64,000 bases of DNA from Planctomycetota bacterium (GCA_029259715.1 JAJDEP010000003.1:701174-765173), one strand, 5' to 3'; counted from the stretch's first letter, positions 2,794 through 61,479 are shown. Translations and numbers: made by a program. Notes: a model not told the origin generated them from the sequence alone.

Positions 2794-4614
2794 CTAGCGC
2801 CGCTGCGCGCGCAACTCGGCCAGCTTCGTGACGGCGTTGGTGTTGGCGGGATCGATGGCCAGCGACTTCTCGTAGAATTCGATGGCCTGCTCGTGCCGGC
2901 CGGCCCGCATGGTGGCGTCGCCCAGGCTGTCCCACACGTTGCCCGACTCGGGATAGGCCTGGGCATTGAGGGTGAACAGCTCGAGGGCCGTCTCGGTGCG
3001 ACCCAGGTTCAGCAACATGTATCCGGCGCCGTTGATGCCGTCCTCCGCGATGAGGATCTCACCGTCGTGCGCGGTCGCGTAGTCGGACCGCAGGGCCCAC
3101 GCCCGCTCCACATCGCCTGCGCTGAGGGCCGCGAAGAACGTGTCCTGCCCGCGATACCGCCGGGCGAGGCCGTCAAGGCGTTCTTGCAGGAAGGCCGCGG
3201 GCATCCAGTGTCCGCGCGCCATCACACCCAAGGGTCGCGACACGGCAGTCACGTCGGCGAGGGGATCGTCGGCGAGCAGCAGCAGGTCGGCCCGCTGTCC
3301 AGACGCCACCGAGCCCCACTCGTCGGACTGGTCGAGGAACCGCGCCGCCTCGGACGTGCCGGCCCGCAGGGCCGCGAACGGTGACAGCCCGCTGTCGATC
3401 AGGTAGCCCAACTCCTCGTGGAGCGAGAAGCCGGGGACCACGAAGGGATTCGGCGTGTCGCTTCCGAGGAGCAGGCCGGCACCCGCCTCGTGCAGGGCCC
3501 GCACGACGCTCAGTCGGTACTCGTGCCAAATGCGATTGGCGAGCGACTCTGCCGGGGTCAGGCTCGCGGCAAAGCGGCTCGCGCCCTGAAACCAACTCAC
3601 CCGCGTGGACGGATCGACGAAGGCCATCTCCGGCTCCGCCATGGCCGCCTGCAGGCTCGCCGCGTCCTCCGGCCGGAACACCACCAGCGTCGGCACCACC
3701 CACAGCGACGAGGCGGCCACGTCCGCCGCGACCGTGGCGATCGTCTCGGGGTCGTAGGCGTCATCGAGAGAAGACTCCCCGGCCGCGATGCGCACCGCCA
3801 CGCCCGCCATCGCCTTGCGGCGTTCCATGAAGGACAGCGCGTCCCATTCCGACTTGATGGGCCCGTCGAGCCGGCGCGTCACCGCCGGGAATCCAGTCAG
3901 GTGTTCGGTGGAGAGCTGCCCCGCCCGCATGGCTGCGTAGAGACCGACGGCGTCGGGGACGTGACCTTCGACGCGCATCTCGTGTTGCGCCGCCGCCTCA
4001 ATGATGGCGGCGTAGACCTCCGCCGACAACTGGTCGTAGACCTTGAGGCCGGCGAAACCGGCCTGCCTGAGCTGCGCCACCGTCTCGCGCGCCTCGTCCG
4101 GGGTCGCAACGATCGTACTGCCCGGCCAGTAGGCGTCCGGACCGTCCATGAGCGGCCCCAAAGTGTAGATCGACGGTGCGATGCGCGCCCCCGACTCGAT
4201 CTCCGCCTGCCAACCCTGGTGCAACGACGTGCCCCACATGTTGCGCACCGTGGTGATGCCGTTGGCGAGGAACAGCCAGAAGTGGTCCTCGTCCCAGACG
4301 TGCACGTGCATGTCGGCGAGACCCGGCATGAGGTAGCGGCCGGCTCCTTCGATGCGGACCGCGTCGGCGGGCACTTCGAGCGTGTCCGCCGCTCCCACGG
4401 CCACGATGCGATCACCGCGCACGATCACCGTCTGATCGGGCAGGATCACCTCTCGATCCATGGGCACCACGTTGACGCCGACGAATGCGTAGACGCTCTC
4501 CACGGCGGCGAGTGCATCGCCGGCGTCGTCAGCGGCGGTGCTCCCGGATACGAACACGACGAGAGCGAGCAACACCAGGGTCACACACCTTCCGGCGGAC
4601 TGGGTCGCGAGCAT
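2794..4614 (-). CDS. amidohydrolase-family metallohydrolase with C-terminal TPR repeats, secreted
   Basis: Start reassigned to internal MLATQSAGRCVTLVLLALVVF (signal peptide) of ORF 2794..5583. LMPGLADMHVHVW is an HxH metal-binding amidohydrolase motif. C-terminus has TPR-like helical repeats (EQAIEFYEKSLAIDPANTNA). The upstream 323 codons of the ORF are Arg/Gly-rich junk. Confidence 0.78.
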   Translation of the reverse strand: MLATQSAGRCVTLVLLALVVFVSGSTAADDAGDALAAVESVYAFVGVNVVPMDREVILPDQTVIVRGDRIVAVGAADTLEVPADAVRIEGAGRYLMPGLADMHVHVWDEDHFWLFLANGITTVRNMWGTSLHQGWQAEIESGARIAPSIYTLGPLMDGPDAYWPGSTIVATPDEARETVAQLRQAGFAGLKVYDQLSAEVYAAIIEAAAQHEMRVEGHVPDAVGLYAAMRAGQLSTEHLTGFPAVTRRLDGPIKSEWDALSFMERRKAMAGVAVRIAAGESSLDDAYDPETIATVAADVAASSLWVVPTLVVFRPEDAASLQAAMAEPEMAFVDPSTRVSWFQGASRFAASLTPAESLANRIWHEYRLSVVRALHEAGAGLLLGSDTPNPFVVPGFSLHEELGYLIDSGLSPFAALRAGTSEAARFLDQSDEWGSVASGQRADLLLLADDPLADVTAVSRPLGVMARGHWMPAAFLQERLDGLARRYRGQDTFFAALSAGDVERAWALRSDYATAHDGEILIAEDGINGAGYMLLNLGRTETALELFTLNAQAYPESGNVWDSLGDATMRAGRHEQAIEFYEKSLAIDPANTNAVTKLAELRAQRR

Positions 4615-4755
4615 GGGACGCACTCCGAGATGAGGGACGCTCCGGATGATATCGAGCCCTCCGCCGACCCGCGACCGGGGCCGCTGTCCCGAAGGACGCC
4701 GCCGAACCGGCGAAAGGGGCTGCATGACCGCGTGATTCGGGCGAGAGTGGGCCCG

Positions 4756-6543
4756 ATGCCCGTTCCGCCCCCCACCGGTCGACGACGTCCGCGCCCCGTC
4801 GCCCGGGCCGCGATCGGCGGCGGCGTGCTGCTCGCCGCGCTCGTCGGTGCGTGCTCGGATGCGAATTCGAACCCGAATTCGGACGCGACTGCGGCACCGA
4901 CGTCGGAGACCGCACCGGCGGAGTGGCGCACGATCGCCGCCGCAGGCGAGGCCCCGTCCCTTTCCATCGCCTGGCGCCCCCGGGACCGCCGCGAGATCCC
5001 CCGTAACGTGGCCTTCGACCTGGAGGTGCAGGTCCGACGCGAAGGCCTCCCCGCCACCATCGACGCCCTCCAGGTCTCCGGGTGGATGCCCGCCCACAAC
5101 CACGGTCTGGTCCAACTCCCCACCGTGCGCCCTGCCGCCGGCGCTGCGAGCCACAAGGCGAGCGGCACTGCGAGCGGCCACGGGAACGACGCTGCGGACG
5201 GACGCTTCGTCGTGGAGGGCCTGCTGCTGCACATGCGCGGGCAGTGGGAGCTGCGTTTCACCGTCCACCACGGGGGCCGCCCGTCGATCCTCGTCGACAC
5301 CGTCGAGGTGGACACGCCCCCCCTGCCGCTCGACTCCCCGCTGCGACTCGACGACGACGCCATCGCGCGGGCGCTGACCTTCTCGCCGCTCCCGGACCCG
5401 CCGCCGGACCCGACCAATGCGGTGGCCGACGACCCGGCGGCCGCGCGCTTCGGCCAGGCCCTGTTCTTCGACGCACGCCTCTCCGCCAACGGCGCGGTCT
5501 CCTGCGCGACCTGCCACGATCCCGGCCGGAGCTGGAGCGACGGCCGCACGCTGGCCAAGGCCCTGGCCCACCATCCGCGCCACACCCCGTCGCTGTGGAA
5601 CGTGGCCTACAACCGCTGGTTCTTCTGGGACGGACGCAAGGACACCCTCTGGTCCCAGGCCCTGGCCCCCTTCGAGGACCCCCGCGAACAGGGCAGCTCA
5701 CGCCTGGAGGTGCTGCACGTCCTCGACGGCGACCCCGCGTCCGTCGAGGCGTACACGCAGGTCTTCGGGATCTGGCCCGGCTTCGCGGATACCGAGCGCT
5801 TTCCGCCGGCCGGTCGCCCCGTCGACGAGCAACCCCTGCACCCGCACCAGCAGGCGTGGGACACGGTGAGCCCGGACGACCGTCTGCTCGTCGACCGGGC
5901 CTTCAGCAACGTCGGCAAGGCACTGGCCGCCTATGAGCGGCTCATTCTCTCCCGCCGAGCGCCCTTCGACGTCTTCGTCGAAGGCCTGCGCGACGGCGAC
6001 GACGCCAAGCTCGCCGCCCTCTCCCCCGCCGCCCAGCGGGGCTTCGCGTTGTTCACGGGCAAGGCGGCGTGCCACGTCTGCCACGACGGGCCGAACTTCA
6101 CCGACCTCGAGTTCCACAGCAACCGCGTCCCCACCGGCGAGGGCGTCGACCCCGGCCGGGCCCTGGGCGTGTTGCGCCTGAAGGCCGACCCGTTCAACAG
6201 CGCGAGCGCCTTCGCCGACGACGGTGGCCTCGTCGGCGCCCGCAAGCTGGCCCTCGCGCCGCGCGCCTGGCACATCCCCGGCGAGTTCAAGACGCCCAGC
6301 CTGCGCAACGTCGCGGTCACCGCCCCCTACATGCACGAGGGGCAGCTGCAGACCCTGGAACAGGTCGTGCGTTTCTACTCGACCTTGGAAGGCGCCGCGC
6401 CGCCGGACCCTTCCGGCGAGCGACTCATCGAAGCCCGCCACCTGACCGACGCCGAGCAGGCCGACCTGGTGGCCTTTCTGCGCTCACTCACCGACGAGAC
6501 GCTGCCGCCGGAGCTGATGGCCGCCCCGGCCCCGCCCCGCTGA
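4756..6543 (+). CDS. di-heme cytochrome c peroxidase (CCP/MauG family) with extra N-terminal lipoprotein domain
   Basis: Two heme-binding CxxCH motifs (CATCHD, CHVCHD). Lipobox-like LLAALVGACSD after MPVPPPTGRRRPRPV. Start ATG at 4756 is in frame with ORF 3418..6543, whose upstream part is antisense to the amidohydrolase gene. Confidence 0.88.
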   Translation: MPVPPPTGRRRPRPVARAAIGGGVLLAALVGACSDANSNPNSDATAAPTSETAPAEWRTIAAAGEAPSLSIAWRPRDRREIPRNVAFDLEVQVRREGLPATIDALQVSGWMPAHNHGLVQLPTVRPAAGAASHKASGTASGHGNDAADGRFVVEGLLLHMRGQWELRFTVHHGGRPSILVDTVEVDTPPLPLDSPLRLDDDAIARALTFSPLPDPPPDPTNAVADDPAAARFGQALFFDARLSANGAVSCATCHDPGRSWSDGRTLAKALAHHPRHTPSLWNVAYNRWFFWDGRKDTLWSQALAPFEDPREQGSSRLEVLHVLDGDPASVEAYTQVFGIWPGFADTERFPPAGRPVDEQPLHPHQQAWDTVSPDDRLLVDRAFSNVGKALAAYERLILSRRAPFDVFVEGLRDGDDAKLAALSPAAQRGFALFTGKAACHVCHDGPNFTDLEFHSNRVPTGEGVDPGRALGVLRLKADPFNSASAFADDGGLVGARKLALAPRAWHIPGEFKTPSLRNVAVTAPYMHEGQLQTLEQVVRFYSTLEGAAPPDPSGERLIEARHLTDAEQADLVAFLRSLTDETLPPELMAAPAPPR

Positions 6544-6571: not shown

Positions 6572-9040
6572 CTACGGTCCGAAGTCGAGCCGCAGGGCGT
6601 TGCTCACCGCGACCCCGTAGGGCACGCCGGCGTCGAGGATGGCGATCTGCGCGAAGACGCTGAGCGGGCCGCCGCCGCCGTTCACCGGGAATTCCACCTC
6701 GCCGTTGCCGTCGGTGACGAGCACCACCTGCACGAAGAAGGGCACGGGCACGAGGTCGCCGCCCAGGAACGGCGTCGGGTTGTTGGTGAAGCCGGCGAAC
6801 AGGACCGCGCCCGCGTTGGGCGCCGCGTTCTCGAGCTTGAGCGTGGAGACGTCGCCGCTCTCGAGGCCGTCACCGCACACGGAGAAGATCGCGCTGCCCG
6901 GGCCGGCGAAGCCGACGTCCGTCTGGCAGGTGCCGCAGTCGAAGCGGGTGATGCGCAGGTCGTCGACGGCCGCTTCGACGATGGAGGCGTCGTTGGCGTC
7001 CTCGGCCACGAATCGCAGCCGCACCGTGGCCGTGGGCGTCACCAGGTCGCTCACCAGGAAGCTGTGGCGATACCAACCGCCGAAGGCCGCCTCGTCGCCG
7101 GGGCCGATGACCTCGACGTTGGTCCAGCCGCTGCCACCGTCGTTGCTGATGTCGACGGTGAAGCTGTCGTCGGGCGTGCTCGACCCGGCCGCGTTGCTGA
7201 ACCAGCGCCAGTAGCTGATGGTGGCGTCGCCGCCGGAGAGGTCGTAGTCGATCGTGGTCAGCGTGGTCGCGCCGCCGTCCACGTCGTTCTCGCCCAGGCT
7301 CCCGAGGGGTGAGCCCTGTCCGGTGACGAAGCACTGGCTGCCGGGATCGCTGTGGTCGTCCTCGGGTTGGGCCGCCGTGGCGATGGGGTCGGCGTGGATC
7401 CACAGGCCGGTGAAGGCCGTGTCGCCCGGGGCGCTGAGGCTCCAGGCCGGCGCGACCTCCAGGTCGTCGGCGATCAGCACCGCCTCGGACACGGCCGCCG
7501 TCGCGCCGTAGGCGAAGCCGGGGGCCGCCGGCGGATCGGTCCAGGTGATGCCCCCCGTGGTGCGGGCGCTCACGAACCACTCCACGGCCGTGCCGCAGGC
7601 GAGCGCGGGGAAGCTGCCCGCGAATTCGCCGCCGCCGATGTCGGCCAGCGGCACCTCGACGGAGCCCGCCCCGCTGTCGACGTGCAGGCGCGCCGTCGCG
7701 ACGTCGAGCGTGGCGCCACCCGCCGCGGCGATGGCCACGGTGAGGGGCTCGCCGTCGGGGTCGATCAGGGTCGGCGCGCCGCCGGACACCGTGAGGTCGA
7801 GCTCGCGCGCGCCCAGGCGCCACACGAACAGGCCGCGCTCGGCGTCGCTGCCGATGACGGTGCCGCTGTCGAAGTAGGGATACACGCTCCAGATGCCGTT
7901 GAACTCGGCGGCGTCATCTTCCGGGAATGTGTCGAACCAGGCCGTCTCCACCGGGCTGGTGGGATTGCTGGCATCGAACACCCGCATCCCGCTGCGGTAG
8001 TTGGCCTCGAAGATCAGGTCGCCCTTGGTGTAGAGGTTGTGGTCGATGGACGGCAGCCCGGCGCTGAAGCTGGCCACCGGCGTCGGGTCGGTCAGGTCGC
8101 TCACATCGAGCACATGGGTCGTGGTCGGCGTCCCGAAGGCCCGCTCGTCGAGCTCGTCGTTCAGGTAGAGGTACTGCCGGTCGGGAGAGAGCCAGCCCTG
8201 ATGGCTGAAGACGGCCGACCCGTAGAAGGCGTCGCCGATGGACACGATGGCGCCCTTGTTGGTGACGTTCAGGATGTCGACGCCCGGGTTCCCGCCACCC
8301 GAGGTGTCCTCCGAGTAGCAGAAGGCGATCTCCTGGTTGGCGAAGGGCCCGCTCGTGTAGCGCACGATCTGGGCATCGTGGACGTAGCGCGTGTTCCAGC
8401 TGCCCACGAAGACGGGCGCGGCCGGGTTGGCCAGGCTGAAGATGCGCAGGCCCTCGGTGGCCCCGCCGCCCCCACCGGTGCGGTAGAGGAAGCCCGCATC
8501 GACGTCGATGGCCACGTTGTGGGAGGCGTCCGTGCCGGCATCAAAGACGCCGCCGATGTACGTGACGATCCCATTGTCGATCTGTGACATGTCGGCGATC
8601 TGCACGCCGTCGCCGCCCTCGCTGACCCAGTAGGCGTAGGTCTGGTAGGTCTTCACATCGCGCCACAGGCTGTTGACCGCCGGCAGGGTCGCAACGATCT
8701 GGGGGCGGCCCGGGTCGGTGATCTCGACGAAGCTCATGCTCGAGCGCGTCGTCATGAGCGCGTATTCGCGGCCCGACCCCGAGGTGTAGCCCCAGCAGTC
8801 GGCGCCGGTGGCGCCGCCGAACTCCGGTAAGGGCACCAGCCCGACCAACGCCACCCCGGAACTGGTGAAACCCGTGGACGCGGTGGGCGTCAGCACGATG
8901 GACGCCGGGATGGGCGCGCGCACGCCGACCATGAACTCGGGGCTGTCGTGGGCCGCCGCCGGCGACGCCAGGAGGCTCAGCGAGACTGCCAGGCCGAGAG
9001 CCAGGCATCCAGCGCGGACGAGGGATCGGGTGTCGGGCAT
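6572..9040 (-). CDS. LVIVD-repeat beta-propeller / choice-of-anchor-B-like secreted protein with C-terminal MAM-like jelly-roll domain
   Basis: Start at internal MPDTRSLVRAGCLALGLAVSLSLLASPAAAHD (signal peptide, residue 45 of ORF 6572..9172). Repeats such as SFVEITDPGRPQIV, GLRIFSLANPAAPV and GMRVFDASNPTSPV match the LVIVD/choice-of-anchor B pattern. C-terminal region is Gly/Ser-rich with conserved W/F positions. Confidence 0.78.
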   Translation of the reverse strand: MPDTRSLVRAGCLALGLAVSLSLLASPAAAHDSPEFMVGVRAPIPASIVLTPTASTGFTSSGVALVGLVPLPEFGGATGADCWGYTSGSGREYALMTTRSSMSFVEITDPGRPQIVATLPAVNSLWRDVKTYQTYAYWVSEGGDGVQIADMSQIDNGIVTYIGGVFDAGTDASHNVAIDVDAGFLYRTGGGGGATEGLRIFSLANPAAPVFVGSWNTRYVHDAQIVRYTSGPFANQEIAFCYSEDTSGGGNPGVDILNVTNKGAIVSIGDAFYGSAVFSHQGWLSPDRQYLYLNDELDERAFGTPTTTHVLDVSDLTDPTPVASFSAGLPSIDHNLYTKGDLIFEANYRSGMRVFDASNPTSPVETAWFDTFPEDDAAEFNGIWSVYPYFDSGTVIGSDAERGLFVWRLGARELDLTVSGGAPTLIDPDGEPLTVAIAAAGGATLDVATARLHVDSGAGSVEVPLADIGGGEFAGSFPALACGTAVEWFVSARTTGGITWTDPPAAPGFAYGATAAVSEAVLIADDLEVAPAWSLSAPGDTAFTGLWIHADPIATAAQPEDDHSDPGSQCFVTGQGSPLGSLGENDVDGGATTLTTIDYDLSGGDATISYWRWFSNAAGSSTPDDSFTVDISNDGGSGWTNVEVIGPGDEAAFGGWYRHSFLVSDLVTPTATVRLRFVAEDANDASIVEAAVDDLRITRFDCGTCQTDVGFAGPGSAIFSVCGDGLESGDVSTLKLENAAPNAGAVLFAGFTNNPTPFLGGDLVPVPFFVQVVLVTDGNGEVEFPVNGGGGPLSVFAQIAILDAGVPYGVAVSNALRLDFGP

Positions 9041-9205
9041 CGAGGGCCTGGGGGGACGCGGACGCAGCGCGGTTCGGGACGGCACGTCACGGAAGGAGTC
9101 AGGGGGGCTGAAGGAGTCGGGGAGGCCGGCGGCCCCGTCACGATTCGGGTCGGACGACAGAGCCGCAGGCATGATAAGCGCCCGGCGACAATCGGGTAAG
9201 CCTCA

Positions 9206-18122: not shown

Positions 18123-20267
18123 TCACTGCGCGCCCCGTGGCTCCACCCGCAGCCAATCCAGGTTGAAGGCGATGGGCTGCTCCTCGTTCGGGTGCAGGTG
18201 GGCCCGGTCCGCGCGAAAGGTGATCGTGGAGATGGACTCTCCCGCCACCCCGGCGGGGACGACGAGTTCGGGTTCGGTCGTCCCGACGCGCTTGACCACC
18301 CACTCACCGACGGACGTCCCGTCGACGTCGACCCGGATCGTGAGCGGGACCACCTCCCGCCGCACGGAGATCCGCGCCTGCAGGTCGAAAGCCCCGTCGA
18401 AGGGCACGTCGAGGAACAAGGACGCCTCGGGCATGGTCGCGCGCCGGTAGGTCGTGCCGTCCGGGCGGCGGCGCGGCGTGCTCCAGCCATGCAGGGACTC
18501 GTGCCGTCCGCCCTGCTCGGAACCCACGTCGATCTCCTCGGCGCGCAAGTCGACCCCCGGGGCGTAGATCGCCTGCTCGAAGCTCCACGAGTCCGACGCG
18601 AGGCCCGGGCCGGACACGGTGTACTCCTCGATGTGCGTCTGCCAATCGTCGCCGGTGCGGTCGCGCAGCACGTAGGCGCCGTAGGCCCGTTCGCGCGACG
18701 CATCCTCCGGCAACTGCGCCAGGTCGCGACCGTGGAAGCGCTCGGGCAACCCCGCGGCCGCCGCGATGGTGGGCGCGATGTCACCGATCCAGGCCGGCGC
18801 GTGCGACGTGCGCAGGGGGCCGACACCGTCGGGCCACTTCACCGCGAGCAGCGGCCGCGCCCGGGCCACCAACTTCTTCGACAGCAGATGGGTCTTCCCG
18901 CCCGCGACGCCGAAGTGCCCCCCGTGGTCGGCGGCGAGCACGATCAGGCTGTTGTCGTAGATCCCGCTCGCCTTCAACTGATCGAAGAACTCGGCGGTCC
19001 TCGTGACGGCGCAGCGCACCTGGTCGAGGTAGCTGGGTTCGTCGTAGGGCCGCTGCGGCACGACGTTGCACTGGTCGTCGAGCACCATGGGCGTGTGGCC
19101 ACCGTTCAGGTGCAGGATCTTGAAGGTGGCCGAACCGCGGTCGAGGCGCAGGCCCCCGCCGTATTCTGCCAGGAAGCGCGCCGAGGCCGCCGGCACGAGC
19201 AGATCCGCGCTCGTCGTCGCCACCAGCGGCTGCACCGTCCAGGCGCCTTCGCTGTACAGCACCTCCTTCAGTGTGTGGGGCGCATGCCGGAACAGCGAGA
19301 GGTCCAGCAGTTCTGCGGCCATGCGGCGCCGATACGCAGCCGCTGACTCGGTCGTCTTGGGGATGGCGTAGGCCGTCGTGTAGACGCCCTGGCTCAGATG
19401 GAAGACATCCAGGCCGATCCAGTCCACCGCGACGCCGACGTCCATCAGGCGCCGCGCGATGGTGTCGCCTTCGAGCATGGCCTTGGCGCGATAGCCGGGC
19501 ACGGAGCGCTCGTTGCGGAAGGGCGGGATCCCCAGCATGACCGGCAGGCTGAAGGCCGTCGTGGGGAAGGCGCCGAGGGCATCGGCATAGAAGGTGAACC
19601 CGGAGAACGAGGTCTGACCCCATTCCGGCTGCTCGGCCACGACGCGCGCGAAGGCGTCGCTGGTGGTGGCGTCGAGGATCACGAGCAGGAAGTTGCGCTC
19701 GTCCGAGAAGGAGTGGATCTCGTCCACGGGGCTGAGCGAGCGGAATTCGTTCCCGATGGGCACCGAGTCCCCGCCGCTCGCGCTCACGAAGGGCAGCGAC
19801 ACCAGACCCAGGGCGAGGAACAGGCCCGACAGGAAGGCGATGCGAGGCAGCAGGAAGCGGTGCAGTCCCTGCCCCACCAGCACCACCAGCACCCAGAGCG
19901 CCAGCTCCCCCGTGGCCCGACCGGACCGCCCCTCGATGGCCAGGGCCTGCCCGTCGATGAGCCCGTAGTCGGCCACGAACATGTTGGCCTGCATCCAGCC
20001 CATGCAGGCCAGCGAGAACACGAGCGTCACGAAGCGTTCGCCGAGCACACGCGGCAGCACCCGGGCGACGAGCGTCAGCACCAGGGTCACGGCGACCACC
20101 AATCCCAGGAGCAGCGGGACGATGCGGCCGAACGTCTCGAGGTACTCGAAGACGTTGAAGGCGTAGAGGGTGAACGGGCCGACGAGCAAGGCGTCGGTCG
20201 CCAGGAGCCCGCTGGCGAGGAGCGCCGCGCCCGTCAAGGGCCGCTCGGCAGTCCCGGAATTCGCCAT
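18123..20267 (-). CDS. membrane-anchored sulfatase-fold hydrolase/transferase (LTA-synthase / phosphoglycerol-transferase-like)
   Basis: About 5 N-terminal TM helices followed by an alkaline-phosphatase-superfamily domain (NFLLVILDATTSDAF...ILHLNGGHTPMV...VLAADHGGHFG). No CxPxR motif. Confidence 0.78.
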   Translation of the reverse strand: MANSGTAERPLTGAALLASGLLATDALLVGPFTLYAFNVFEYLETFGRIVPLLLGLVVAVTLVLTLVARVLPRVLGERFVTLVFSLACMGWMQANMFVADYGLIDGQALAIEGRSGRATGELALWVLVVLVGQGLHRFLLPRIAFLSGLFLALGLVSLPFVSASGGDSVPIGNEFRSLSPVDEIHSFSDERNFLLVILDATTSDAFARVVAEQPEWGQTSFSGFTFYADALGAFPTTAFSLPVMLGIPPFRNERSVPGYRAKAMLEGDTIARRLMDVGVAVDWIGLDVFHLSQGVYTTAYAIPKTTESAAAYRRRMAAELLDLSLFRHAPHTLKEVLYSEGAWTVQPLVATTSADLLVPAASARFLAEYGGGLRLDRGSATFKILHLNGGHTPMVLDDQCNVVPQRPYDEPSYLDQVRCAVTRTAEFFDQLKASGIYDNSLIVLAADHGGHFGVAGGKTHLLSKKLVARARPLLAVKWPDGVGPLRTSHAPAWIGDIAPTIAAAAGLPERFHGRDLAQLPEDASRERAYGAYVLRDRTGDDWQTHIEEYTVSGPGLASDSWSFEQAIYAPGVDLRAEEIDVGSEQGGRHESLHGWSTPRRRPDGTTYRRATMPEASLFLDVPFDGAFDLQARISVRREVVPLTIRVDVDGTSVGEWVVKRVGTTEPELVVPAGVAGESISTITFRADRAHLHPNEEQPIAFNLDWLRVEPRGAQ

Positions 20268-22475: not shown

Positions 22476-25400
22476 TCACCGCTCCTCGAGTGTGAAGTCG
22501 ACCGTCACTCGCTCGCCCCGCGCCAGGGTCACGGGCTGGCTGGCGAGGAATGTGCGCTGTTCCGTCCACGCGACGATCCTGATCTCGTAGGTGCCGGGAC
22601 GGACGGGATCGATGACCCACTGCCCGTCCTCGGTGTAACCGCGCCCTTCCAACCCCTCCTCGCCGAGCCTGTGCAACTCGACGATGACGTCCTCGACCGG
22701 GCGACCGCTGCGCGTCCGGGCAGTGCCCTCGAGCACGGCAGCCCGCTCCAGCGCGACCGTGACACGCTCGGGGATCGTATGAGCTTCGACACCGAATCTC
22801 GCCGAGTCCGCGAGGAAACCGGAGGCCCTGCCCACCAGCCAGTATCGGCCGGGGAGCACACTGACCAACTCGCCTTGGCCGAGACCGTCCGTCTCCCCAT
22901 ACACATCAAAGTCGAAGCGCACCTCCTCTCGGATCCGCTTCATGGTGGTCAGATCCCAATCGGGAAAGCTCGCCCACGACTGCCCGATCTCGGGCGTCCG
23001 GACAAGGCGGACCCGCGCGGCGGGCAAGGGCTCCCGGGACGAGGCATCGACGACCTCGAAGGCCAAGGTGTGGCCGTGCAGGTCGATGTCGGCCACCACG
23101 ACGTCGTCGTCGACGAGTTCCACTCGCACGATGCGCACAAATCCCTGCGCCGCATTGACGAGCAACAGCGCCGGGCCCGAGAAGAGCCCGCGCACACGAA
23201 AGCCGCCCATCTCATCCGAAGTGGTCTCTGCGACGAGGGTCCACGGCTCGTCGCCCGTGGGAGTCGTGGCAAGTCGGATGATGGCCCCCGAGACGGCCCG
23301 GCCCGCGTCGGTCACCGTCCCGGACACGAGAGCGCCCTCGGCCAGGACGAGATCCCTCGTCACGTGAGCGCCCCCGTCGAGGTGGATCTCCTGCGCCTGG
23401 CGAGGGAACGCGGACCGTCGAGCACCCGATGCACGGAATGTCGCCTCGACGGCCACCGGGTCGCTCGTCGCGAGCAGCACGAATTCATCCGGCATCAGGT
23501 CGTTGAAGCGATAGAAACCCTGTTCGTTGGCCGGGGTCTTCCGCGCCGACGGACGAGATGAGTCCGAATCCCATGAAGAGAGGGACACGGGCAGCCCCTC
23601 CCACCGGTCACCGCCCTCCTCAACTGCGGATCGCCTGGGCAGGGCCATCACCGTGGCGCCCGGCAGGATCTCGCCGTCGGCACCCTTCACGACGCCTTCG
23701 ACCACGGCCTTGGGCAGCAGCCGGATGACATAGTCTTCGACCTTCCCCTTGGGCAGGACGAGGTGGTGATTGCTGGCGGTGTGACGGCCCGGTGCGTTGA
23801 CCCAGAGTTGCCACCGCCCCGGCACGACGTTGGTGAACACGAAGCGTCCCGAGTCGTCGCTGCGCACGCCGATCGTCCCGGTGCCCAGGGCCGCTCCGGA
23901 CTCGGCCGCCATCTGCACGCTGGCATGGACGATCGGGCGTCCGGCCTCATCGATGACGATGCCGCCGAAGGATTGGGCCGGCTCGAGCAGCAACTCGAAT
24001 GTGATGCGCCCCGCCGATGGCACGGGCGGCGTCACCGCCACGGCCTGGGCGTAGCCCCGCGCCCTCACCTGGAGCTTGGTGCCTTCCCGCCCGGCCCCGG
24101 TGATGAGGTGCGTGCCCGCCTCCAGATCGTGATAGGCGGCCGACAAGTGGCTCGTGTCGTCCCGGATCGGTCGCAGCTCGAAAGCATCGGGAAGGCTGGT
24201 CCAGAGCTGAGCGCCCTCGACCACGTCGCCGGTCTCCCCGTCGCGCACAGTGAGCACGATCTCGCCGGGAGGCAGCAACGTGATGACCAGCGGCGGGTCG
24301 CTCGGAGCCACCGCAGCGACATGGGTGAAGGCGGTTCCCTTGGCGCGTGCGTGGACGGAGTATGGGCCGGGCTGGAGGTCGCCGATGAGGAATCGTCCCA
24401 GCGAGTCCGTGCGCACATGGGCTTCCCACTTCGCCGCGACCATGGCGACCTCGTCGTCGTCCGGCCACTTGGGGAAGTCGTGGGAGCGGGCGTACACCTC
24501 GGCATCGGCGACGGGCTCACCTTTCGCGTCCTGCACGATGCCACTCAGGCGCGGCCCCGCCTCGAGAGTGAGAGTGCCCAGATCGGTCGACTCTCCGGGC
24601 ACAACGGCAACGTCGACGAGCGCTGTTGACCGGTGGTCTGGGCGAGCGACGAGCAGGTCCACACGCCCGCCCGCGAGTCCCGCGAGTGCGAAGCGACCCT
24701 CTTCGTCGGTGGCCGTGCGCACCACCGTCCGCCGCGATCGTGCGAGTCGATCCGGATGGAGGAAGACGCCACTCCGGGTGTCGCCCGAGACGGTGGGTTG
24801 CTCGCTCACCAGCGAAACCTCGACGTCGGACAGGGCTCCGCCGTTCCGATCGACCACGCGCCCGACCACGCCCGCGCCCCGTGCCAATCGAAGGGTCCCC
24901 AGGTCGTTGGCCCCCACCGCGACTTGACCGTTGGCGTGGATCCGCGTGGCGTGAGCATCGTGGAGCACGACCAGGAGCGTGCCGTCGCGGTCGTCTTCAT
25001 CCCAGCGACTCACGTCGATGTCGAGGGTGAAGCGTCCCTCCGCATCGCTGAGCACACGCGGAACCCGGATGTTCTGGAGCAGCGGCAATCCGGCGACATG
25101 CTGATTCACACCGAGCAGTCCTCGAACATCTCCGTCGTGAACCGAAAAGCGGACCTCGGCCTCGGCGAGCGGCTCACCCTGCGCATCCTCGATGCGGCCT
25201 GAGAGAACGGCCACCTCGCCGGCGAGCCCGTTGCCCGCGACGGCAGGAACAGCCTGCCCCCCGACGCCCAACGACTCGACCGGCGCCTCCAGCGCCCCCG
25301 GCAAGGCATTGCTGAGTGCCGTCGGCGAGGCCGGCGGGTCGGCCGGAACCGCAGCCACCGGGCTCGGGGGACCCGTCTCCGCATCACCAGCGTCCAGCGC

Positions 25401-26204
25401 CTGCACCGTCGACCACAGTAGACCGAACGCACCGATCACGACGATCGCGCCCACGAGGACCTTGGCCTTGGCGGTCATGACGAGAGTTCCCTTCAGGCCC
25501 GTCCCCGCGAGGGGACCGACCGCGGATCCGCCGGCCTGCGCGCCGGCTTGCCCGGTGGCCTGGGCAGCGGCGTGCCCGGTGGTCTGGGCGGTGGCTTGAG
25601 CCGCGGCCTGTGCGGCTGCGTGGGCGAAGGCCATCTCCCCGAAGGCCCCCGACGAAAGCGCTAGCGGAATCAGACTCAGCGACCACGACGAACGCGCGCC
25701 GCCGAACTCGCCGTCGAGGCGGCGCCGGAGTTGCTCGAGGGCGCGCTTGAGGCGAGACCGCACCGTGGAGCCGGGAATGTCGAGGCGACGCGCGATGTCC
25801 TCGGCGCTCAGGTCCTCGAAGTAGCGCAGCAGCACCGTGGTGCGGTACGGCTCGGCAAGTCGCAGCACGGCGTGCACGACTTTCTGCTGGATGTCGGCCC
25901 GTGTCACGAGATCGTCTGTCGAAGGCAGGTCGTCGGGAACGGGCGCCTCCGCCTCATGCCGCGATCGACGTCGATTCGACCGCGCCTCCCGCCGCACCAG
26001 GTTGCGGATGATTCCGCCTAGCCAGGCCCGGGTGTGCTCCGGCTCGCGCGGCCGCTGCTTCATCGCGATGAGCCAGGTCTGCTGGACGACGTCGTCCACG
26101 CGGCCCTGATCGAACAGCAGACTCGCGGCCAGGCGCCGGACCCAACGGGAATGGGTCAGCAGCTCGTCGATCTCGAAAGCGTCGGACTCGGGCATCGCGG
26201 TCAC
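22476..26204 (-). CDS. ECF (sigma-70 family) sigma factor fused via one TM helix to ~10 extracytoplasmic carboxypeptidase-regulatory-like repeats (1242 aa)
   Basis: Residues ~20-165 carry sigma region 2 (DDVVQQTWLIAMKQ) and a region-4 HTH (YFEDLSAEDIARRLDIPGSTVRSRLKRALEQLRRRL). An Ala/Gln-rich linker follows, then a hydrophobic helix (VLVGAIVVIGAFGLLWSTV). Then repeated modules with D.EGRF.L..L..G.Y.L....GF signature (e.g. DEEGRFALAGLAGGRVDLLVARPD, DSLGRFLIGDLQPGPYSVHARAKG, DDSGRFVFTNVVPGRWQLWVNAPG). No in-frame stop anywhere. The initiator is GTG. Confidence 0.8.
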   Translation of the reverse strand: MTAMPESDAFEIDELLTHSRWVRRLAASLLFDQGRVDDVVQQTWLIAMKQRPREPEHTRAWLGGIIRNLVRREARSNRRRSRHEAEAPVPDDLPSTDDLVTRADIQQKVVHAVLRLAEPYRTTVLLRYFEDLSAEDIARRLDIPGSTVRSRLKRALEQLRRRLDGEFGGARSSWSLSLIPLALSSGAFGEMAFAHAAAQAAAQATAQTTGHAAAQATGQAGAQAGGSAVGPLAGTGLKGTLVMTAKAKVLVGAIVVIGAFGLLWSTVQALDAGDAETGPPSPVAAVPADPPASPTALSNALPGALEAPVESLGVGGQAVPAVAGNGLAGEVAVLSGRIEDAQGEPLAEAEVRFSVHDGDVRGLLGVNQHVAGLPLLQNIRVPRVLSDAEGRFTLDIDVSRWDEDDRDGTLLVVLHDAHATRIHANGQVAVGANDLGTLRLARGAGVVGRVVDRNGGALSDVEVSLVSEQPTVSGDTRSGVFLHPDRLARSRRTVVRTATDEEGRFALAGLAGGRVDLLVARPDHRSTALVDVAVVPGESTDLGTLTLEAGPRLSGIVQDAKGEPVADAEVYARSHDFPKWPDDDEVAMVAAKWEAHVRTDSLGRFLIGDLQPGPYSVHARAKGTAFTHVAAVAPSDPPLVITLLPPGEIVLTVRDGETGDVVEGAQLWTSLPDAFELRPIRDDTSHLSAAYHDLEAGTHLITGAGREGTKLQVRARGYAQAVAVTPPVPSAGRITFELLLEPAQSFGGIVIDEAGRPIVHASVQMAAESGAALGTGTIGVRSDDSGRFVFTNVVPGRWQLWVNAPGRHTASNHHLVLPKGKVEDYVIRLLPKAVVEGVVKGADGEILPGATVMALPRRSAVEEGGDRWEGLPVSLSSWDSDSSRPSARKTPANEQGFYRFNDLMPDEFVLLATSDPVAVEATFRASGARRSAFPRQAQEIHLDGGAHVTRDLVLAEGALVSGTVTDAGRAVSGAIIRLATTPTGDEPWTLVAETTSDEMGGFRVRGLFSGPALLLVNAAQGFVRIVRVELVDDDVVVADIDLHGHTLAFEVVDASSREPLPAARVRLVRTPEIGQSWASFPDWDLTTMKRIREEVRFDFDVYGETDGLGQGELVSVLPGRYWLVGRASGFLADSARFGVEAHTIPERVTVALERAAVLEGTARTRSGRPVEDVIVELHRLGEEGLEGRGYTEDGQWVIDPVRPGTYEIRIVAWTEQRTFLASQPVTLARGERVTVDFTLEER

Positions 26205-26338
26205 CCCTCTTCTTCATGGAATCATGAAGTGAGTGCCCGGCGGGGTCTCGTCCGTTGCAGGAATCCCCGATTCAGGCTGCGGATGCCTGCACTAGCCCGG
26301 CTCACCGCACCTCGAGCAGCCGCCCTAAAGAGTCGCCC

Positions 26339-26566
26339 CTACGCGCCACCCCGCACCGTCAACCACAAGCCGAGAATGATCCCGCCGCCGATGCCCAGCA
26401 TCCAGCCTGCCGAAGGCACGAAGTAGGGAAACAGCATCAGCACGATGCCGGTGGCCAACTGCGGGGCGCGGGACTGCCGCTTGCCGTAGAGGAACAGGCC
26501 CATCCCCACCGAACCCACGGCGAGGGAGGCCAGCAGCTCCGAGGTGGTGAAGTCGAGGGCGAGCAT
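26339..26566 (-). CDS. hypothetical small two-TM membrane protein (75 aa)
   Basis: ATG ORF with strong GC3 bias and two hydrophobic helices (LASLAVGSVGMGLFLY, GWMLGIGGGIILGLWL). Sits between the sigma-fusion gene and the MFS gene. Confidence 0.4.
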   Translation of the reverse strand: MLALDFTTSELLASLAVGSVGMGLFLYGKRQSRAPQLATGIVLMLFPYFVPSAGWMLGIGGGIILGLWLTVRGGA

Positions 26567-38976: not shown

Positions 38977-40449
38977 ATGATCGATCGGGGGCACGTCGGA
39001 TGGCACCACTCCCTCCCGCCGCTCCTCATCGGCCTGGCCCTCTGCGCCGCCCTTGCGTGCGGCACCCAAGCGCCGGCTGACGCGCCCGACCCGTCGACCA
39101 CCAACGCGCCCTCTGCCACGGGCGCCCTTGCCCCCGCCAACGCCCCCCGTCCCAACGTCATCGTCATCCTGGCCGACGATCTCGGCTATGGCGACGTCGG
39201 CTTCTACGGCGGCACCCGCTACCGCACCCCGGCCATCGACCGCCTCGCCGCCGAGGGCCTGCGCCTCACCGACTTCCACGTCGCCGCGCCCGTGTGCGGA
39301 CCGAGCCGTCAGGCGCTGTTGAGCGGGCGCTATCCGCACCGCGTCGGCGGCACCGCGAACAACGACGGCATCGACATCGACCCCGAGCGCATGCGCGCCG
39401 AGCTGGCCCGCTTCTTCCCGGTGTTCCTAGCCGAGGCCGGCTACGCCACCGGCGCCATGGGCAAGTGGCACGTGCCCACCGGGCCCAAGCTGTGGGTGCG
39501 CGCGCCGGACAGCCCGTCGCGGCCGACGCGCTGCGGCTTCGGGACGTTCCGCGGCTTCCTCAGCGCCATCTGCGACTACGTGACCCACGCCAACCAGCTC
39601 GGGCAACACGACTGGTGGCACGACGACGAACTCAATCGCGAAGAGGGTTACCTGACCCACCTGATCACCGGGCACGCGGTGGAGTTCATCGAGACCCACG
39701 CCGACGAGCCCTTCTTCCTCTACGTCTCGCACCTCGCGCCGCACGTGCCGCACCAGCTGCCGGGCGACGCGCCCTACTTCGTCGAGAGCGACGACGTGGC
39801 CGGCGCGAGGGTCCGCGGCGACGCCACCGACGAGCCCACCTCCCCCGAGCGCTACGGCGCCATGCTCGGCGAGCTCGACGCGTCGGTGGCGACGATCATG
39901 GAGACCGTGGCGCGCCTCGGCCTCGACGAACGCACGCTGGTCGTGTTCCTCTCCGACAACGGCGGCAGCGCGCCCGGCGACTCCGGCCCCTTCGCCGGCG
40001 GCAAGGGCGACCTGCACGAGGGCGGCCACCGGGTGCCCGCCGCGTTGCGCTGGCCGGGTCGCATCGCCGCCGGCACCCGCGACGACAGCCTCTGCTCGGC
40101 CCTCGACCTGGCTCCCACCATCCTCGAGCTCGCCGGCGCGGCGCCGCCGGGCGATCACGAACTCGACGGCCTCAGCCTGGCGCCGTTGCTGCAGGGCGAC
40201 GGCATGCCGACCGGGCGCCGCCTGTTCTGGGAGTGGGGCAACCGCTTCGGCGACGACGTCTACGTGGCAGCACGCGAAGGCTCCTGGAAGATCGTCGGCA
40301 CCCGGGCGGACCTCGCGCTCTACGACCTCGACGCCGACCCCGGCGAGTCCGACGACCTCTCCGAGCGGCACCCCGAGCGGGTCGCGCAGCTGCTGGCCGC
40401 CCACGACGAATGGAATCGGCTCCACACGCCCCCCGCCGAGTCCCGCTGA
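38977..40449 (+). CDS. arylsulfatase-family (Cys-type) sulfatase, secreted
   Basis: PNVIVILADDLGYGDVGFYGG and C-G-P-S-R (VCGPSRQALLSGRYPHRVG). Signal peptide/lipobox LALCAALACGT. Confidence 0.9.
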   Translation: MIDRGHVGWHHSLPPLLIGLALCAALACGTQAPADAPDPSTTNAPSATGALAPANAPRPNVIVILADDLGYGDVGFYGGTRYRTPAIDRLAAEGLRLTDFHVAAPVCGPSRQALLSGRYPHRVGGTANNDGIDIDPERMRAELARFFPVFLAEAGYATGAMGKWHVPTGPKLWVRAPDSPSRPTRCGFGTFRGFLSAICDYVTHANQLGQHDWWHDDELNREEGYLTHLITGHAVEFIETHADEPFFLYVSHLAPHVPHQLPGDAPYFVESDDVAGARVRGDATDEPTSPERYGAMLGELDASVATIMETVARLGLDERTLVVFLSDNGGSAPGDSGPFAGGKGDLHEGGHRVPAALRWPGRIAAGTRDDSLCSALDLAPTILELAGAAPPGDHELDGLSLAPLLQGDGMPTGRRLFWEWGNRFGDDVYVAAREGSWKIVGTRADLALYDLDADPGESDDLSERHPERVAQLLAAHDEWNRLHTPPAESR

Positions 40450-41165: not shown

Positions 41166-43127
41166 ATGGCCGACTCCGAAACGCCACGCGACGACGCGAC
41201 ACCGGCCGAGCCCGAAGCGGGGCGCGGTGATGAGGCTCGGAGCAGCGAGGACCGCCGCGACCTCCAGGAGGTCCGGCGTCTGCTCGTGGGCGACGAGATC
41301 AAGCGCCTCGGCCAACTCGAGCAAGAGGTCGAGGACCTGGTTCCCCGCGCCGTCGACGTCGGCCGCATCCTGCCCGACGCCATCGACGCGGCCAACGCAG
41401 AGGACACCGCGCGCCTCGGCGAGTCCCTGACCCCCGCCGTCGAGGGCGCCCTCCACCGCTCGGTGCGCAAGAACCCGCGCGCCCTCGCCGACGTGCTCTT
41501 CCCCGTGCTCGGCCCGGCCATTCGCAAGGCCATCCAGACCTCGCTGGCCGGGATGATCGAGTCGTTCAACCGCACGCTCGAGAACAGCGTCTCGCCGTCG
41601 AGCCTCAAGTGGCGCCTGGAGGCGCGGCGCACCGGGCGCCCCTTCGCCGAGGTGGTGCTGCTGCACACGCTCGTCTATCGCGTCGAGCAGGTCTTCCTGA
41701 TCCACGCCGAGTCGGGGCTCGCGCTGGCCCACGCCCAGTCGCCGACGATCACCGCCGAGGACCCCGACCTCGTCTCGGCCATGCTCAAGGCCCTCGAGGA
41801 CTTCGCCTCCGATTCGTTCGGCGAGGGCGAGCGCGACCCGATCCAGCAGGTGGCCTTCGGCGACAAGGTCCTGCACGTAGCCGCGGGTCCCAAGGTCCTC
41901 GTGGCGGCCGTCGTGCGGGGCAACCCGCCGCCCGACTACAGCGTGCGCATGGCCGAGGCCGTCGAACGCGTGCACACCGACTTCGGCGACGAGCTGGAGG
42001 AGTTCAGCGGCGAGACGGCGCCCTTCGACCGGGCCGACGACGTGCTGGCGGCGCTGCTCGACGAGAAGATCGCGCGGCCCAAGAGCGCCAAACTGATCAT
42101 GGTCGTTTGGGTCGTGATCACGCTCATCGCCCTGGGCCTGCTCGCCTGGGGCGTCACGGCGTTCATCACCTGGCGCATGGACGAACGCGATCGGCGCAAC
42201 GCCCAGGAGCAGCAGGTCAAGGACCTGGGTGAGAACTTCGGCGTGCTCTCGAACCTGAGCCAGTCGATGGAGCAGGCCATCGCCGAGTTGGCGGCCAGCC
42301 AGGACGTGCGCGACCAGGCCCTCGCCGCCAAGGCCGAGCGCCGCCGCCGGCTCATCGCGGCGATGCACACGGCGCCCGGCCTGATGGTGATGGAGATCGG
42401 CGACGACGGCGACCGCCTGCTGCTCACCGGCCTGCGCGACCCCGACGGCGCCGACCCCGACCAGGTCATGCGGGATGCGGGGGTCGACCCCGCGGTGGTC
42501 GAGGCCCTGTGGCAGCCGTTCATGTCGTTCGAGCCCTCCATCGTGCTCACGCGCAGCGGGCGCGTGCTCGACCCGCCCGACGGGCTCGACCTCGCCATGC
42601 GCGGCGACGTGCTGGTGGCCTCCGGCACCGCCGATCATGCTTGGATCATTCGCGCGCGTCTGCTCGCCCCCACCATCGCCGGCGTCTCGGCCTACGAGGA
42701 CGACGGCGTGACCGACCTCGACGTCGCCGCCTTGCAGGCCGTCGCCGCACGCATGGCCGCCATGCACGTGTCGTTCCCGCCGGGTTCGCCCGAGCCCGCC
42801 ATCGACGACGACGTGCGCATGGCCCTCAGCGCCGTCATCGACGAGCTGGAGGCCACCGCCGGCCGCGCCGACCGCCTCGTACGCGTCGAGCTGCGCGGCC
42901 ACATCGAATCGCAGGAGATCGGCCACGGCGTGCTCGACCTCAAGCAGCGCCGCTGCGAGGCGGTCAAGCACGAGCTGGAACTGCTGCATGAAGGCGTGCG
43001 ACTCTTCTTCGTGGTCGTCGAGCAGCAGGACGACGTGGCCGGTGCCACGCCGCCGGCCGGACTCGATCACTTGCGCTTCGTGGACTTCGCCGTGATCGAC
43101 ACCGGCGCCGGGGGGGACGACGGATGA
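41166..43127 (+). CDS. hypothetical membrane protein (653 aa) with central TM helix and possible OmpA/MotB-like C-terminus
   Basis: Long GC3-biased ORF 27 bp after the coiled-coil gene. Central TM (LIMVVWVVITLIALGLLAWGVTAFITW). C-terminal LDLKQRRCEAVKHEL resembles the OmpA-like LSxxRAxAV motif (weak). Stop overlaps the GTPase start (ATGA). Confidence 0.62.
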   Translation: MADSETPRDDATPAEPEAGRGDEARSSEDRRDLQEVRRLLVGDEIKRLGQLEQEVEDLVPRAVDVGRILPDAIDAANAEDTARLGESLTPAVEGALHRSVRKNPRALADVLFPVLGPAIRKAIQTSLAGMIESFNRTLENSVSPSSLKWRLEARRTGRPFAEVVLLHTLVYRVEQVFLIHAESGLALAHAQSPTITAEDPDLVSAMLKALEDFASDSFGEGERDPIQQVAFGDKVLHVAAGPKVLVAAVVRGNPPPDYSVRMAEAVERVHTDFGDELEEFSGETAPFDRADDVLAALLDEKIARPKSAKLIMVVWVVITLIALGLLAWGVTAFITWRMDERDRRNAQEQQVKDLGENFGVLSNLSQSMEQAIAELAASQDVRDQALAAKAERRRRLIAAMHTAPGLMVMEIGDDGDRLLLTGLRDPDGADPDQVMRDAGVDPAVVEALWQPFMSFEPSIVLTRSGRVLDPPDGLDLAMRGDVLVASGTADHAWIIRARLLAPTIAGVSAYEDDGVTDLDVAALQAVAARMAAMHVSFPPGSPEPAIDDDVRMALSAVIDELEATAGRADRLVRVELRGHIESQEIGHGVLDLKQRRCEAVKHELELLHEGVRLFFVVVEQQDDVAGATPPAGLDHLRFVDFAVIDTGAGGDDG

Positions 43128-61155: not shown

Positions 61156-61479
61156 CTCTCCTCGTGTTCGGGGCCGCCCGGATCCCCCAGACAGGGGACA
61201 CAGCCCATTCCCTGGGCCCATGGGCGCAAGCGCGGGATTATAGGGAGGGTGCCGAGGACGGGCAACGCGACCGGCCCGGCCCCGCGCGGGGCCCTCCCGA
61301 AGCCCGGCCCGGCCCTCCCCGGGGTCGAGGCTATCGAGGGGATCGCCGGGATTTCGGTCTGGATTCACCGGGTCCACACGGCGATGAGGAGAATAGGCCC
61401 GCAGGGACCGGGAGTGGGCCACGGAGACGAGGGTCCCGGAGACAGGGTCCCCGAGACAAGGGGGGCAGGGGGCGAGGAC

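Follow-up and report, generated by a model that had tools for sequence, protein, structure and literature searches.

A predicted membrane-tethered ECF sigma factor with an extracytoplasmic CarboxypepD_reg extension in a Planctomycetota genome

Sigma factors of the extracytoplasmic function (ECF) type are frequently referred to as the third pillar of bacterial signalling; the genomes of Planctomycetota contain dozens of them, of which, to our knowledge, almost none have been studied. Here, we addressed a gene found in a 64,000-nucleotide stretch of a Planctomycetota bacterium genome (GCA_029259715.1, JAJDEP010000003.1:701174-765173; hereafter the window, with all positions counted from its first nucleotide), which encodes in a single polypeptide an ECF sigma core, one transmembrane (TM) helix and a large array of beta-sandwich modules expected to reside outside the cytoplasm. 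The organization of this gene and its product, the family to which it belongs, the promoter predicted upstream of it and the modes of control compatible with such a design are considered below.

The sigma-fusion gene and its product

The gene lies on the minus strand as an uninterrupted open reading frame (ORF) of 1242 codons (22476..26204, counted from GTG 26204), exactly as assumed in the original prediction, which was made from the sequence alone. The likelier start is ATG 26195, giving a product of 1239 amino acids (aa), because the database protein P0001, which has 100% identity to the window protein and is 1239 aa long, begins at this codon, three codons inside the GTG frame, and because GAGGGG is positioned 8 nt upstream (Table 1). 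The GC content of third codon positions (GC3) calculated per 60-codon block stays in the range of 0.72-0.92 over the entire frame, the sigma/TM junction included. The same protein is encoded on an 8.8-kb contig of the Logan assembly of run SRR15505512, which shows 100% identity to the window across 1001 nt that include the promoter, the sigma part, the linker and the TM helix; this assembly was obtained with an assembler different from that used for the metagenome-assembled genome (MAG), although the underlying reads may be the same, so that the data are not necessarily independent.

The N-terminal 160 aa can be assigned to a canonical ECF (group 4) sigma2-sigma4 core, as was originally proposed. 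The matches to Pfam Sigma70_r2 (ORF aa 17-80, 38.0 bits, cutoff 24), Pfam Sigma70_r4_2 (ORF aa 107-159, 48.8 bits, cutoff 25.7) and NCBIfam TIGR02937 (sigma70-ECF; 69.2 bits, cutoff 42.9) all exceed their cutoffs, while the hidden Markov model (HMM) scan of the window protein gave no matches to sigma regions 1 and 3 and reached none of the specific ECF subfamily models of NCBIfam. In the alignment of 120 homologs region 2.2 is represented by DDVVQxTW, region 2.4 by WLxxVxRNxxxxxxR and region 4.2 by EPYR...LRYFE...IA...TVRTRLxRAL, and in three orthologs identity reaches 61-69% in sigma2 and sigma4 compared to 27-48% per extracytoplasmic module. The AlphaFold2 (AF2) model of aa 1-280 (mean predicted local distance difference test score, pLDDT, 82.9) retrieved with Foldseek the solved ECF sigmas SigL, sigmaE, AlgU, SigW and SigH. 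Its root-mean-square deviation (rmsd) amounts to 11-12 A from conformations bound to RNA polymerase (RNAP) versus 17-21 A from those bound to anti-sigma factors, which hints, if only weakly, that the model contains no intramolecular anti-sigma clamp.

Beyond sigma4 the family shares a segment with the pattern LD...GGDRxAWxLALxPLA, where W is nearly invariant, followed in turn by a variable spacer, the juxtamembrane edge G..[VI]M[ST]xKxK, the TM helix and an interfacial Trp. Both the post-sigma4 segment and the TM helix are helical in the AF2 model (168-182 and 242-266, respectively). Both the Ala/Gln-rich linker and the single hydrophobic helix mentioned in the original prediction were recovered, since the Kyte-Doolittle (KD) scan detects one strong hydrophobic segment (KD 2.33, ORF aa 249-267), and about 115 of 120 homologs also have a single TM helix. 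The Ala/Gln stretch is missing from homologs and contains at 25533-25616 an in-frame imperfect tandem repeat with a period of 24 nt (8 codons, 3.5 copies, 75% matches), and it is best described as a lineage-specific insertion. It is because of this insert that the sigma4-to-TM distance comprises 84 aa in the window protein, twice the median of 42 aa (10th-90th percentile 30-52) in the family. A hidden anti-sigma domain between sigma4 and the membrane was rejected: none of 35 linker segments matched any Pfam anti-sigma family at E-values up to 10, and a search of the linker-segment profile against PDB gave nothing relevant.

The N-in/C-out orientation appears to be the only sensible one because of the net charge, of the flanks of the TM helix in the window protein itself (+3 N-terminally and -3 C-terminally), and of the Arg-rich sigma core, which lacks a signal peptide and must stay cytoplasmic. 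The acidic character of the C-flank is retained family-wide (1.97 versus 0.27 Asp plus Glu), while the positive-inside rule applied to Lys and Arg alone is not decisive (1.34 versus 1.63). The anatomy predicted originally, that is ECF sigma, one TM helix and large extracytoplasmic repeats in N-in/C-out topology, is correct and conserved in homologs.

The extracytoplasmic part gives 205.9 bits (cutoff 32.3) with Pfam CarboxypepD_reg (PF13620) over seven stretches, and an iteratively built family profile divides it into nine beta-sandwich modules spaced at approximately 100 aa, of which eight are significant and one is weak, so that the repeats were foreseen rightly and only their number, expected to be approximately ten, has to be corrected to nine. 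The matches to Dioxygenase_C, SdrD_B and Big_1 were taken as cross-matches among clan-related beta-sandwich models and not as catalytic domains. The three orthologs (38-40% identity, 99-100% coverage) are collinear with the window protein over all nine modules with only 0-4% of gaps. Some proteins, a minority of those sharing this sigma-TM unit, have DSBA/Thioredoxin_4 (P0086 and P0101) or PDZ (P0055, P0108, and P0114) domains outside the membrane, which replace or accompany the CarboxypepD_reg repeats, and PF07638 is present in one more protein (P0093); the PDZ and thiol-oxidoreductase variants hint that the inputs differ, redox state and unfolded C-termini being examples.

Table 1. Positions of the sigma-fusion gene, its upstream signals and the parts of its product in the window
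Feature	Position	Strand	Comment
Whole gene, sigma-TM-CarboxypepD_reg fusion	22476..26195	(-)	Stop codon 22476-22478; ORF extends to GTG 26204
Shine-Dalgarno-like GAGGGG	26204..26209	(-)	8 nt 5' of ATG 26195; read directly from sequence
Predicted autoregulatory ECF-type promoter	26232..26267	(-)	Position weight matrix score 16.7, model trained without the window
Promoter -35, GGGATTCC-TGCAAC	TGCAAC at 26254-26259	(-)	
Promoter spacer between -35 and -10, ggacgagaccccg		(-)	
Promoter -10 block, CCGGGCACT	26232-26240	(-)	Ends 36 nt before ATG
Sigma region 2	25965..26156	(-)	P0001 aa 14-77; includes DDVVQQTW core-binding motif
Sigma region 4.2 helix-turn-helix	25728..25886	(-)	P0001 aa 104-156
Conserved post-sigma4 segment	25641..25712	(-)	P0001 aa 162-185; motif GGDRxAWxLALxPLA
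Ala/Gln-rich insert, lineage-specific	25482..25640	(-)	aa 186-238
Juxtamembrane LVMTAKAK and single TM helix, ending in interfacial Trp	25398..25481	(-)	aa 239-266
Pro/Ala/acidic extracytoplasmic stalk, poorly conserved	25200..25397	(-)	aa 267-332
Nine CarboxypepD_reg (transthyretin-like beta-sandwich) modules	22479..25199	(-)	Pfam and family profile
Module starts	P0001 aa 333, 445, 552, 650 (weak), 745, 834, 959, 1048, 1157	(-)	Family profile

Family, upstream promoter and genomic neighbourhood

The search with the full-length protein returned at least 120 clusters combining Sigma70_r2/r4_2 with CarboxypepD_reg in proteins of 700-1500 aa, which answers in the affirmative whether the same domain order exists in databases; the named clusters among those listed carry the annotation 'sigma-70 family RNA polymerase sigma factor' and originate from Planctomycetota MAGs. 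In contigs representing one genome per species 62 related loci were revealed, nearly all of them belonging to Planctomycetota or Phycisphaerales MAGs, with the closest one located in an uncultured Phycisphaerales MAG and with 2-3 loci per genome in several MAGs; a second paralog of the fusion is absent from the 64-kb window. The profile encompassing sigma, linker and TM helix was run against 1.84 billion representative proteins and gave 12,103 matches at E <= 1e-30. The best 150 of them (E <= 1e-79) all extend through the TM region, approximately 90% being 600-1460 aa long, and CarboxypepD_reg was found in 46 of 47 matches sampled blind to the C-terminus, a proportion to be read with the caveat that the profile itself was built from homologs retrieved with the full-length query. 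Because of these 46 relatives, the sigma clade and the CarboxypepD_reg-type extension appear to be tightly coupled, and together with the collinearity of the orthologs this argues that the extension is under selection.

Candidates for naturally split or short versions were discarded, since the matches of 240-440 aa either have junk-like Arg/Gly/Pro tails or are flagged as partial, and they are probably frameshifted or truncated. Tandem long ORFs were observed in one long-read Planctomycetota MAG (L046: 4824-7820, 7887-10958, and 11318-12334 on the plus strand), where at least the second and the third begin with a sigma core; the third (P0130, 338 aa) has a junk-like tail and is probably frameshifted, and the array as a whole points to recent tandem duplication in the family. 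The planctomycetal sigma type to which the window protein belongs is very large and has already been catalogued and described by computation, and in this respect the rarity implied by the original prediction was wrong, all the more as both the ECF57 type, considered below, and the hypothesis of its release from the membrane have been published already.

The upstream regions of the family contain a bipartite motif, GGATTyC-n-TG[AC]A[AC]C separated by 15-16 nt from GGCA[CT]T or GGTGT. In the window it is laid out as GGGATTCCTGCAAC, 13 nt and CCGGGCACT at 26232..26267(-). An ECF-type promoter was expected between 26205 and 26338 with the consensus GGAAC-N16-17-CGTC; the promoter is there, but its consensus form is TGCAAC-N16-GGCACT instead. 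With the position weight matrix (PWM) trained on all upstream regions, 25 of 58 scored above every coding control, and under two-fold cross-validation every one of the 212 controls was outscored by 15 of the 57 regions held out (Mann-Whitney p = 1.7e-7), while the window site obtained 16.7 from the model trained without the window compared to the control maximum of 13.7 (n=212). PWM scanning of 771 kb of related loci on both strands placed 19 of the 25 top matches directly upstream of sigma-fusion genes, and only the sigma genes' own promoters stand out in these loci; other PWM matches in the window were rejected as regulon targets, being located inside coding regions or facing no gene. Since the family ECF-type motif sits directly upstream of the sigma-fusion genes, a placement typical of autoregulated ECF sigmas, the predicted promoter indicates probable autoregulation.

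For most family members, the -10 block ends 9-16 nt before the predicted start codon (e.g. L002, L003, L025, L026, L038, L045, and L055), which would imply leaderless or nearly leaderless mRNAs, although mispredicted start codons could give the same picture. The window gene is exceptional, having 36 nt (26196-26231) between the -10 block and ATG together with a Shine-Dalgarno-like site.

The genes flanking the fusion encode a sulfatase-like membrane protein, a PhoD-like metallophosphatase, a transporter of the major facilitator superfamily (MFS) and a DUF975-like protein, and sulfatases, a MoxR/DUF58 cluster, a histidine kinase and Rho are encoded farther out in the window. There is no anti-sigma gene within the window, and none of the 62 related loci shares neighbouring genes with it. 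The 75-aa ORF at 26339..26566(-), once regarded as a possible accessory component, has coding-like composition and 2-3 hydrophobic segments and represents a real family of conserved membrane proteins of 70-79 aa (24 clusters without Pfam match), the members of which adjoin PSCyt/PSD, WD40, APH or methyltransferase genes and never a sigma fusion. Its role as a partner of the sigma fusion was rejected given the lack of synteny in the 62 loci and the contexts of its homologs, which are of planctomycetal type but unrelated to sigma factors.

Other parts of the window deserve brief mention. An ORF of 1041 aa at 3418-6543 (+) contains a di-haem cytochrome c peroxidase (CCP_MauG) domain at aa 674-856 preceded by approximately 670 N-terminal aa without Pfam match, and its GC3 (0.83) is below that of its neighbours, as is also the case for the sigma fusion. 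For four large ORFs (460-866 aa) of good coding composition no Pfam match was obtained at E <= 1e-4 (6572-9172(-), 41166-43127(+), 54887-56269(-), and 59896-61992(-)). Three clear sulfatases and a weaker sulfatase-like gene (1240-2790, 18123-20267, 38977-40449, and 53415-54872) are in keeping with the sulfated-polysaccharide-degrading lifestyle of Planctomycetota/Phycisphaerae, and the segment 30127-34700 (-) has an operon-like arrangement of genes for DUF4350, a MoxR-type AAA ATPase, DUF58 and a SpoIIM-like membrane protein.

Mode of control and its alternatives

The favoured reading, to which we assign a probability of roughly 55%, considers the window protein as a membrane-anchored 'one-component' ECF sigma factor that is inactive while tethered and is released by proteolysis. 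The sigma2-sigma4 core would be cytoplasmic and anchored in the inner membrane by the short conserved helix and the TM helix, with the nine modules on their flexible stalk projecting into the periplasm or envelope as an input or stalk domain. Because neither a separate nor a built-in anti-sigma domain is present, control would most likely be exerted by tethering, which in itself would prevent productive holoenzyme formation, possibly with the aid of the post-sigma4 helix. An envelope cue would lead to trimming of the extracytoplasmic part, whereupon a site-2-type protease (S2P) would cut within the membrane and free the sigma core; the latter could then bind RNAP and transcribe from TGCAAC-N16-GGCACT, its own promoter included, thus closing a positive feedback. 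The sensing role of the repeats, activation by proteolysis and the choice of proteases are inferences on our part; precedents for proteolytic release are known in IutY (Prc plus RseP), SCO4117/ECF52, pro-sigmaK/SpoIVFB and TcpP/ToxR (PMC8999054, PMC10202637).

Several points weigh against this scheme. The family alignment reveals no conserved cleavage motif past the TM helix, and the window contains no gene for a site-1 or site-2 protease. CarboxypepD_reg is a generic beta-sandwich without known ligand, which makes the 'sensor' role an assumption. On the side of transcription, stringent scores are reached by only about a quarter to a third of the family promoters, and the 8 kb to each side yielded no regulon members apart from the gene.

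Proteolytic release and action at the membrane are both live options that cannot be separated by sequence alone. In the second case, which we regard as possible though rather unlikely, the protein would behave in the manner of ToxR, CadC and TcpP, recruiting holoenzyme to membrane-proximal DNA without cleavage, and the extracytoplasmic repeats would modulate its activity via oligomerisation or conformation. ToxR and CadC have the same topology, the length of the cytoplasmic linker, 84 aa here and 42 aa as the family median, could suffice, there is no anti-sigma domain that would need to be destroyed, and the AF2 core is nearer to the RNAP-bound than to the anti-sigma-bound conformations, which is weak evidence. 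However, the characterised tethered sigmas, that is IutY, pro-sigmaK and SCO4117, are all activated by removal of the anchor, and positive autoregulation without a switch would keep adding membrane protein. We know of no sigma factor working in holoenzyme while anchored in the membrane.

It is also conceivable, but appreciably less probable, that the extension is mainly an envelope or surface protein, the release of sigma being a by-product that reports its export, assembly or turnover; for example, a signal-peptidase-like cut after the TM helix followed by clearance of the stub by S2P would measure the flux of envelope protein and not an external ligand. Modules of the CarboxypepD_reg, SdrD_B and SpaA type are typical of stalks and adhesins, VQA|LDA after the TM helix of the window protein resembles a signal-peptidase site, and removal of signal-peptide remnants is a known activity of S2Ps (reference list of PMC10202637). 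Nevertheless, the AxA-like site is not conserved, no conserved signal-peptidase site following the TM helix being found across the family alignment, the hydrophobic segment matches a TM helix in length and not a signal-peptide h-region, and the C-terminus has no sorting signal.

PhyR contains a sigma-like domain without productive binding to RNA polymerase. This precedent is all that favours a similar degeneration of the core into the protein-interaction module of a membrane protein, and the idea seems highly improbable, since the motifs of regions 2.2, 2.4 and 4.2 belong to the most conserved part of the protein (61-69% versus 27-48%) and a matching bipartite ECF-type promoter is conserved upstream. 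Finally, an artefactual junction, by a lost stop or frameshift, between a sigma gene and an anti-sigma or repeat-protein gene downstream of it, for which the original prediction advised a check and to which the Ala/Gln region as a GC-rich imperfect tandem repeat is a prone type of site, has a negligible chance and is effectively refuted as far as sequence data allow, given the identical Logan assembly, the uniform GC3 through the junction, the repeat period divisible by three, the same fused layout in more than 100 homologs and in thousands of relatives, and the failure to find a split version, the short forms themselves looking frameshifted.

The sigma-TM-CarboxypepD_reg design is stable and abundant (thousands of clusters at 50% identity), predicted to be autoregulated and devoid of an anti-sigma domain. 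If release by proteolysis is true, it would be the simplest known ECF switch, in which the sigma itself is the substrate of regulated intramembrane proteolysis (RIP). Besides, TGCAAC-N16-GGCACT and its sigma could serve synthetic biology as a compact, orthogonal sigma/promoter pair.

Relation to known systems

Two-protein systems such as sigmaE-RseA and SigW-RsiW resemble the window protein in their ECF core, their autoregulated promoter, the RIP logic and a membrane component that spans once and bears an extracytoplasmic sensor, but there the sigma is sequestered by the anti-sigma domain of a second protein, whereas the present design consists of a single protein devoid of such a domain. ToxR, CadC and TcpP are alike in being N-in/C-out single-pass proteins that recognise DNA through a cytoplasmic domain and carry their sensor in the periplasm, and ToxR and TcpP are RseP substrates; they are, however, OmpR-type winged-helix activators relying on the housekeeping holoenzyme, while the window protein tethers the sigma subunit itself, and the Pfam scan found at its N-terminus the sigma2/sigma4 core and no OmpR-type winged helix (Trans_reg_C). 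Pro-sigmaK of Bacillus subtilis is a sigma that is itself membrane-associated, inactive and a direct substrate of a site-2-type metalloprotease, SpoIVFB, which is the design proposed here. It is a group 3 sigma with an N-terminal prosequence and without an extracytoplasmic domain, in contrast to the C-terminal TM anchor, the group 4 sigma and the putative sensor of about 970 aa in the window protein.

The ECF reclassification by Casas-Pastor and co-authors includes 19 groups with C-terminal extensions (PMC7826278), and a planctomycetal clade with large and varied C-terminal extensions was described by Pinto and da Fonseca (PMC7671368). Prc and RseP release IutY, a sigma/anti-sigma hybrid, and actinobacterial ECF48/52/53 carry a zinc anti-sigma domain and one or two TM helices (PMC8999054). 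Like the window protein, IutY of Pseudomonas putida (ECF243) and ECF48/52/53 (SCO4117) combine ECF sigma, TM helix and extracytoplasmic domain in one polypeptide, and for them proteolysis removing the extension is shown or supported by experiment (for IutY with Prc plus RseP). They differ in phyla and sensor domains and, above all, in the anti-sigma domain (FecR N-terminus or zinc-binding ZAS) placed before the membrane, whereas in the window family none is detectable and about 42 aa are available. In the searchable literature we found neither a named ECF-CarboxypepD_reg fusion nor an experiment on one.

The closest described group is ECF57, formerly ECF01-Gob and reportedly associated with Jogler 2012. 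According to the supplement of the Casas-Pastor preprint (Casas-Pastor 2021), ECF57 is exclusive to Planctomycetes and is marked by a completely conserved pair of Cys, one in sigma2 and one in sigma4; its C-terminal extension has approximately two TM helices and, in part of the group, WD40 or homeodomain-like domains; the same entry states 'promoter motifs not conserved' and already proposes 'release from the membrane'. By this description, ECF57 and the window family are alike in their occurrence in Planctomycetes, in many paralogs per genome, in the lack of an anti-sigma factor and in a sigma core C-terminally fused to TM helix(es) and beta-rich repeats. The same description sets them apart in several features, since sigma-core Cys is absent from the window protein and from 89 of 116 members (two or more in only 2 of 116) in place of the conserved pair, one TM helix is present in about 115 of 120 homologs against an average of about two, CarboxypepD_reg was found in 46 of 47 sampled relatives in place of WD40 or homeodomain-like domains, and the promoter is conserved. 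Compared with ECF57 by its published description, the family may be ECF57s3, a neighbouring group or an unclassified one.

The anatomy is genuine and worthy of experiment as a minimal design without an anti-sigma domain, though it will be no surprise to a specialist, and current concepts are not overturned because the type and the release hypothesis have already been proposed in silico. A bolder proposal, which we consider doubtful, is that the family forms a distinct and possibly unclassified ECF group apart from ECF57, very abundant in Phycisphaerae-type Planctomycetota, where intramembrane proteolysis would act on the sigma itself with no anti-sigma domain involved. The GGDRxAWxLALxPLA helix would then be a minimal element of a new kind, either autoinhibitory or a degron, and the long CarboxypepD_reg stalk would work as an envelope-spanning ruler or mechanical sensor. 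If this were true, it would be a third general design of ECF signalling beside the sigma/anti-sigma pairs and the soluble C-terminal extensions.

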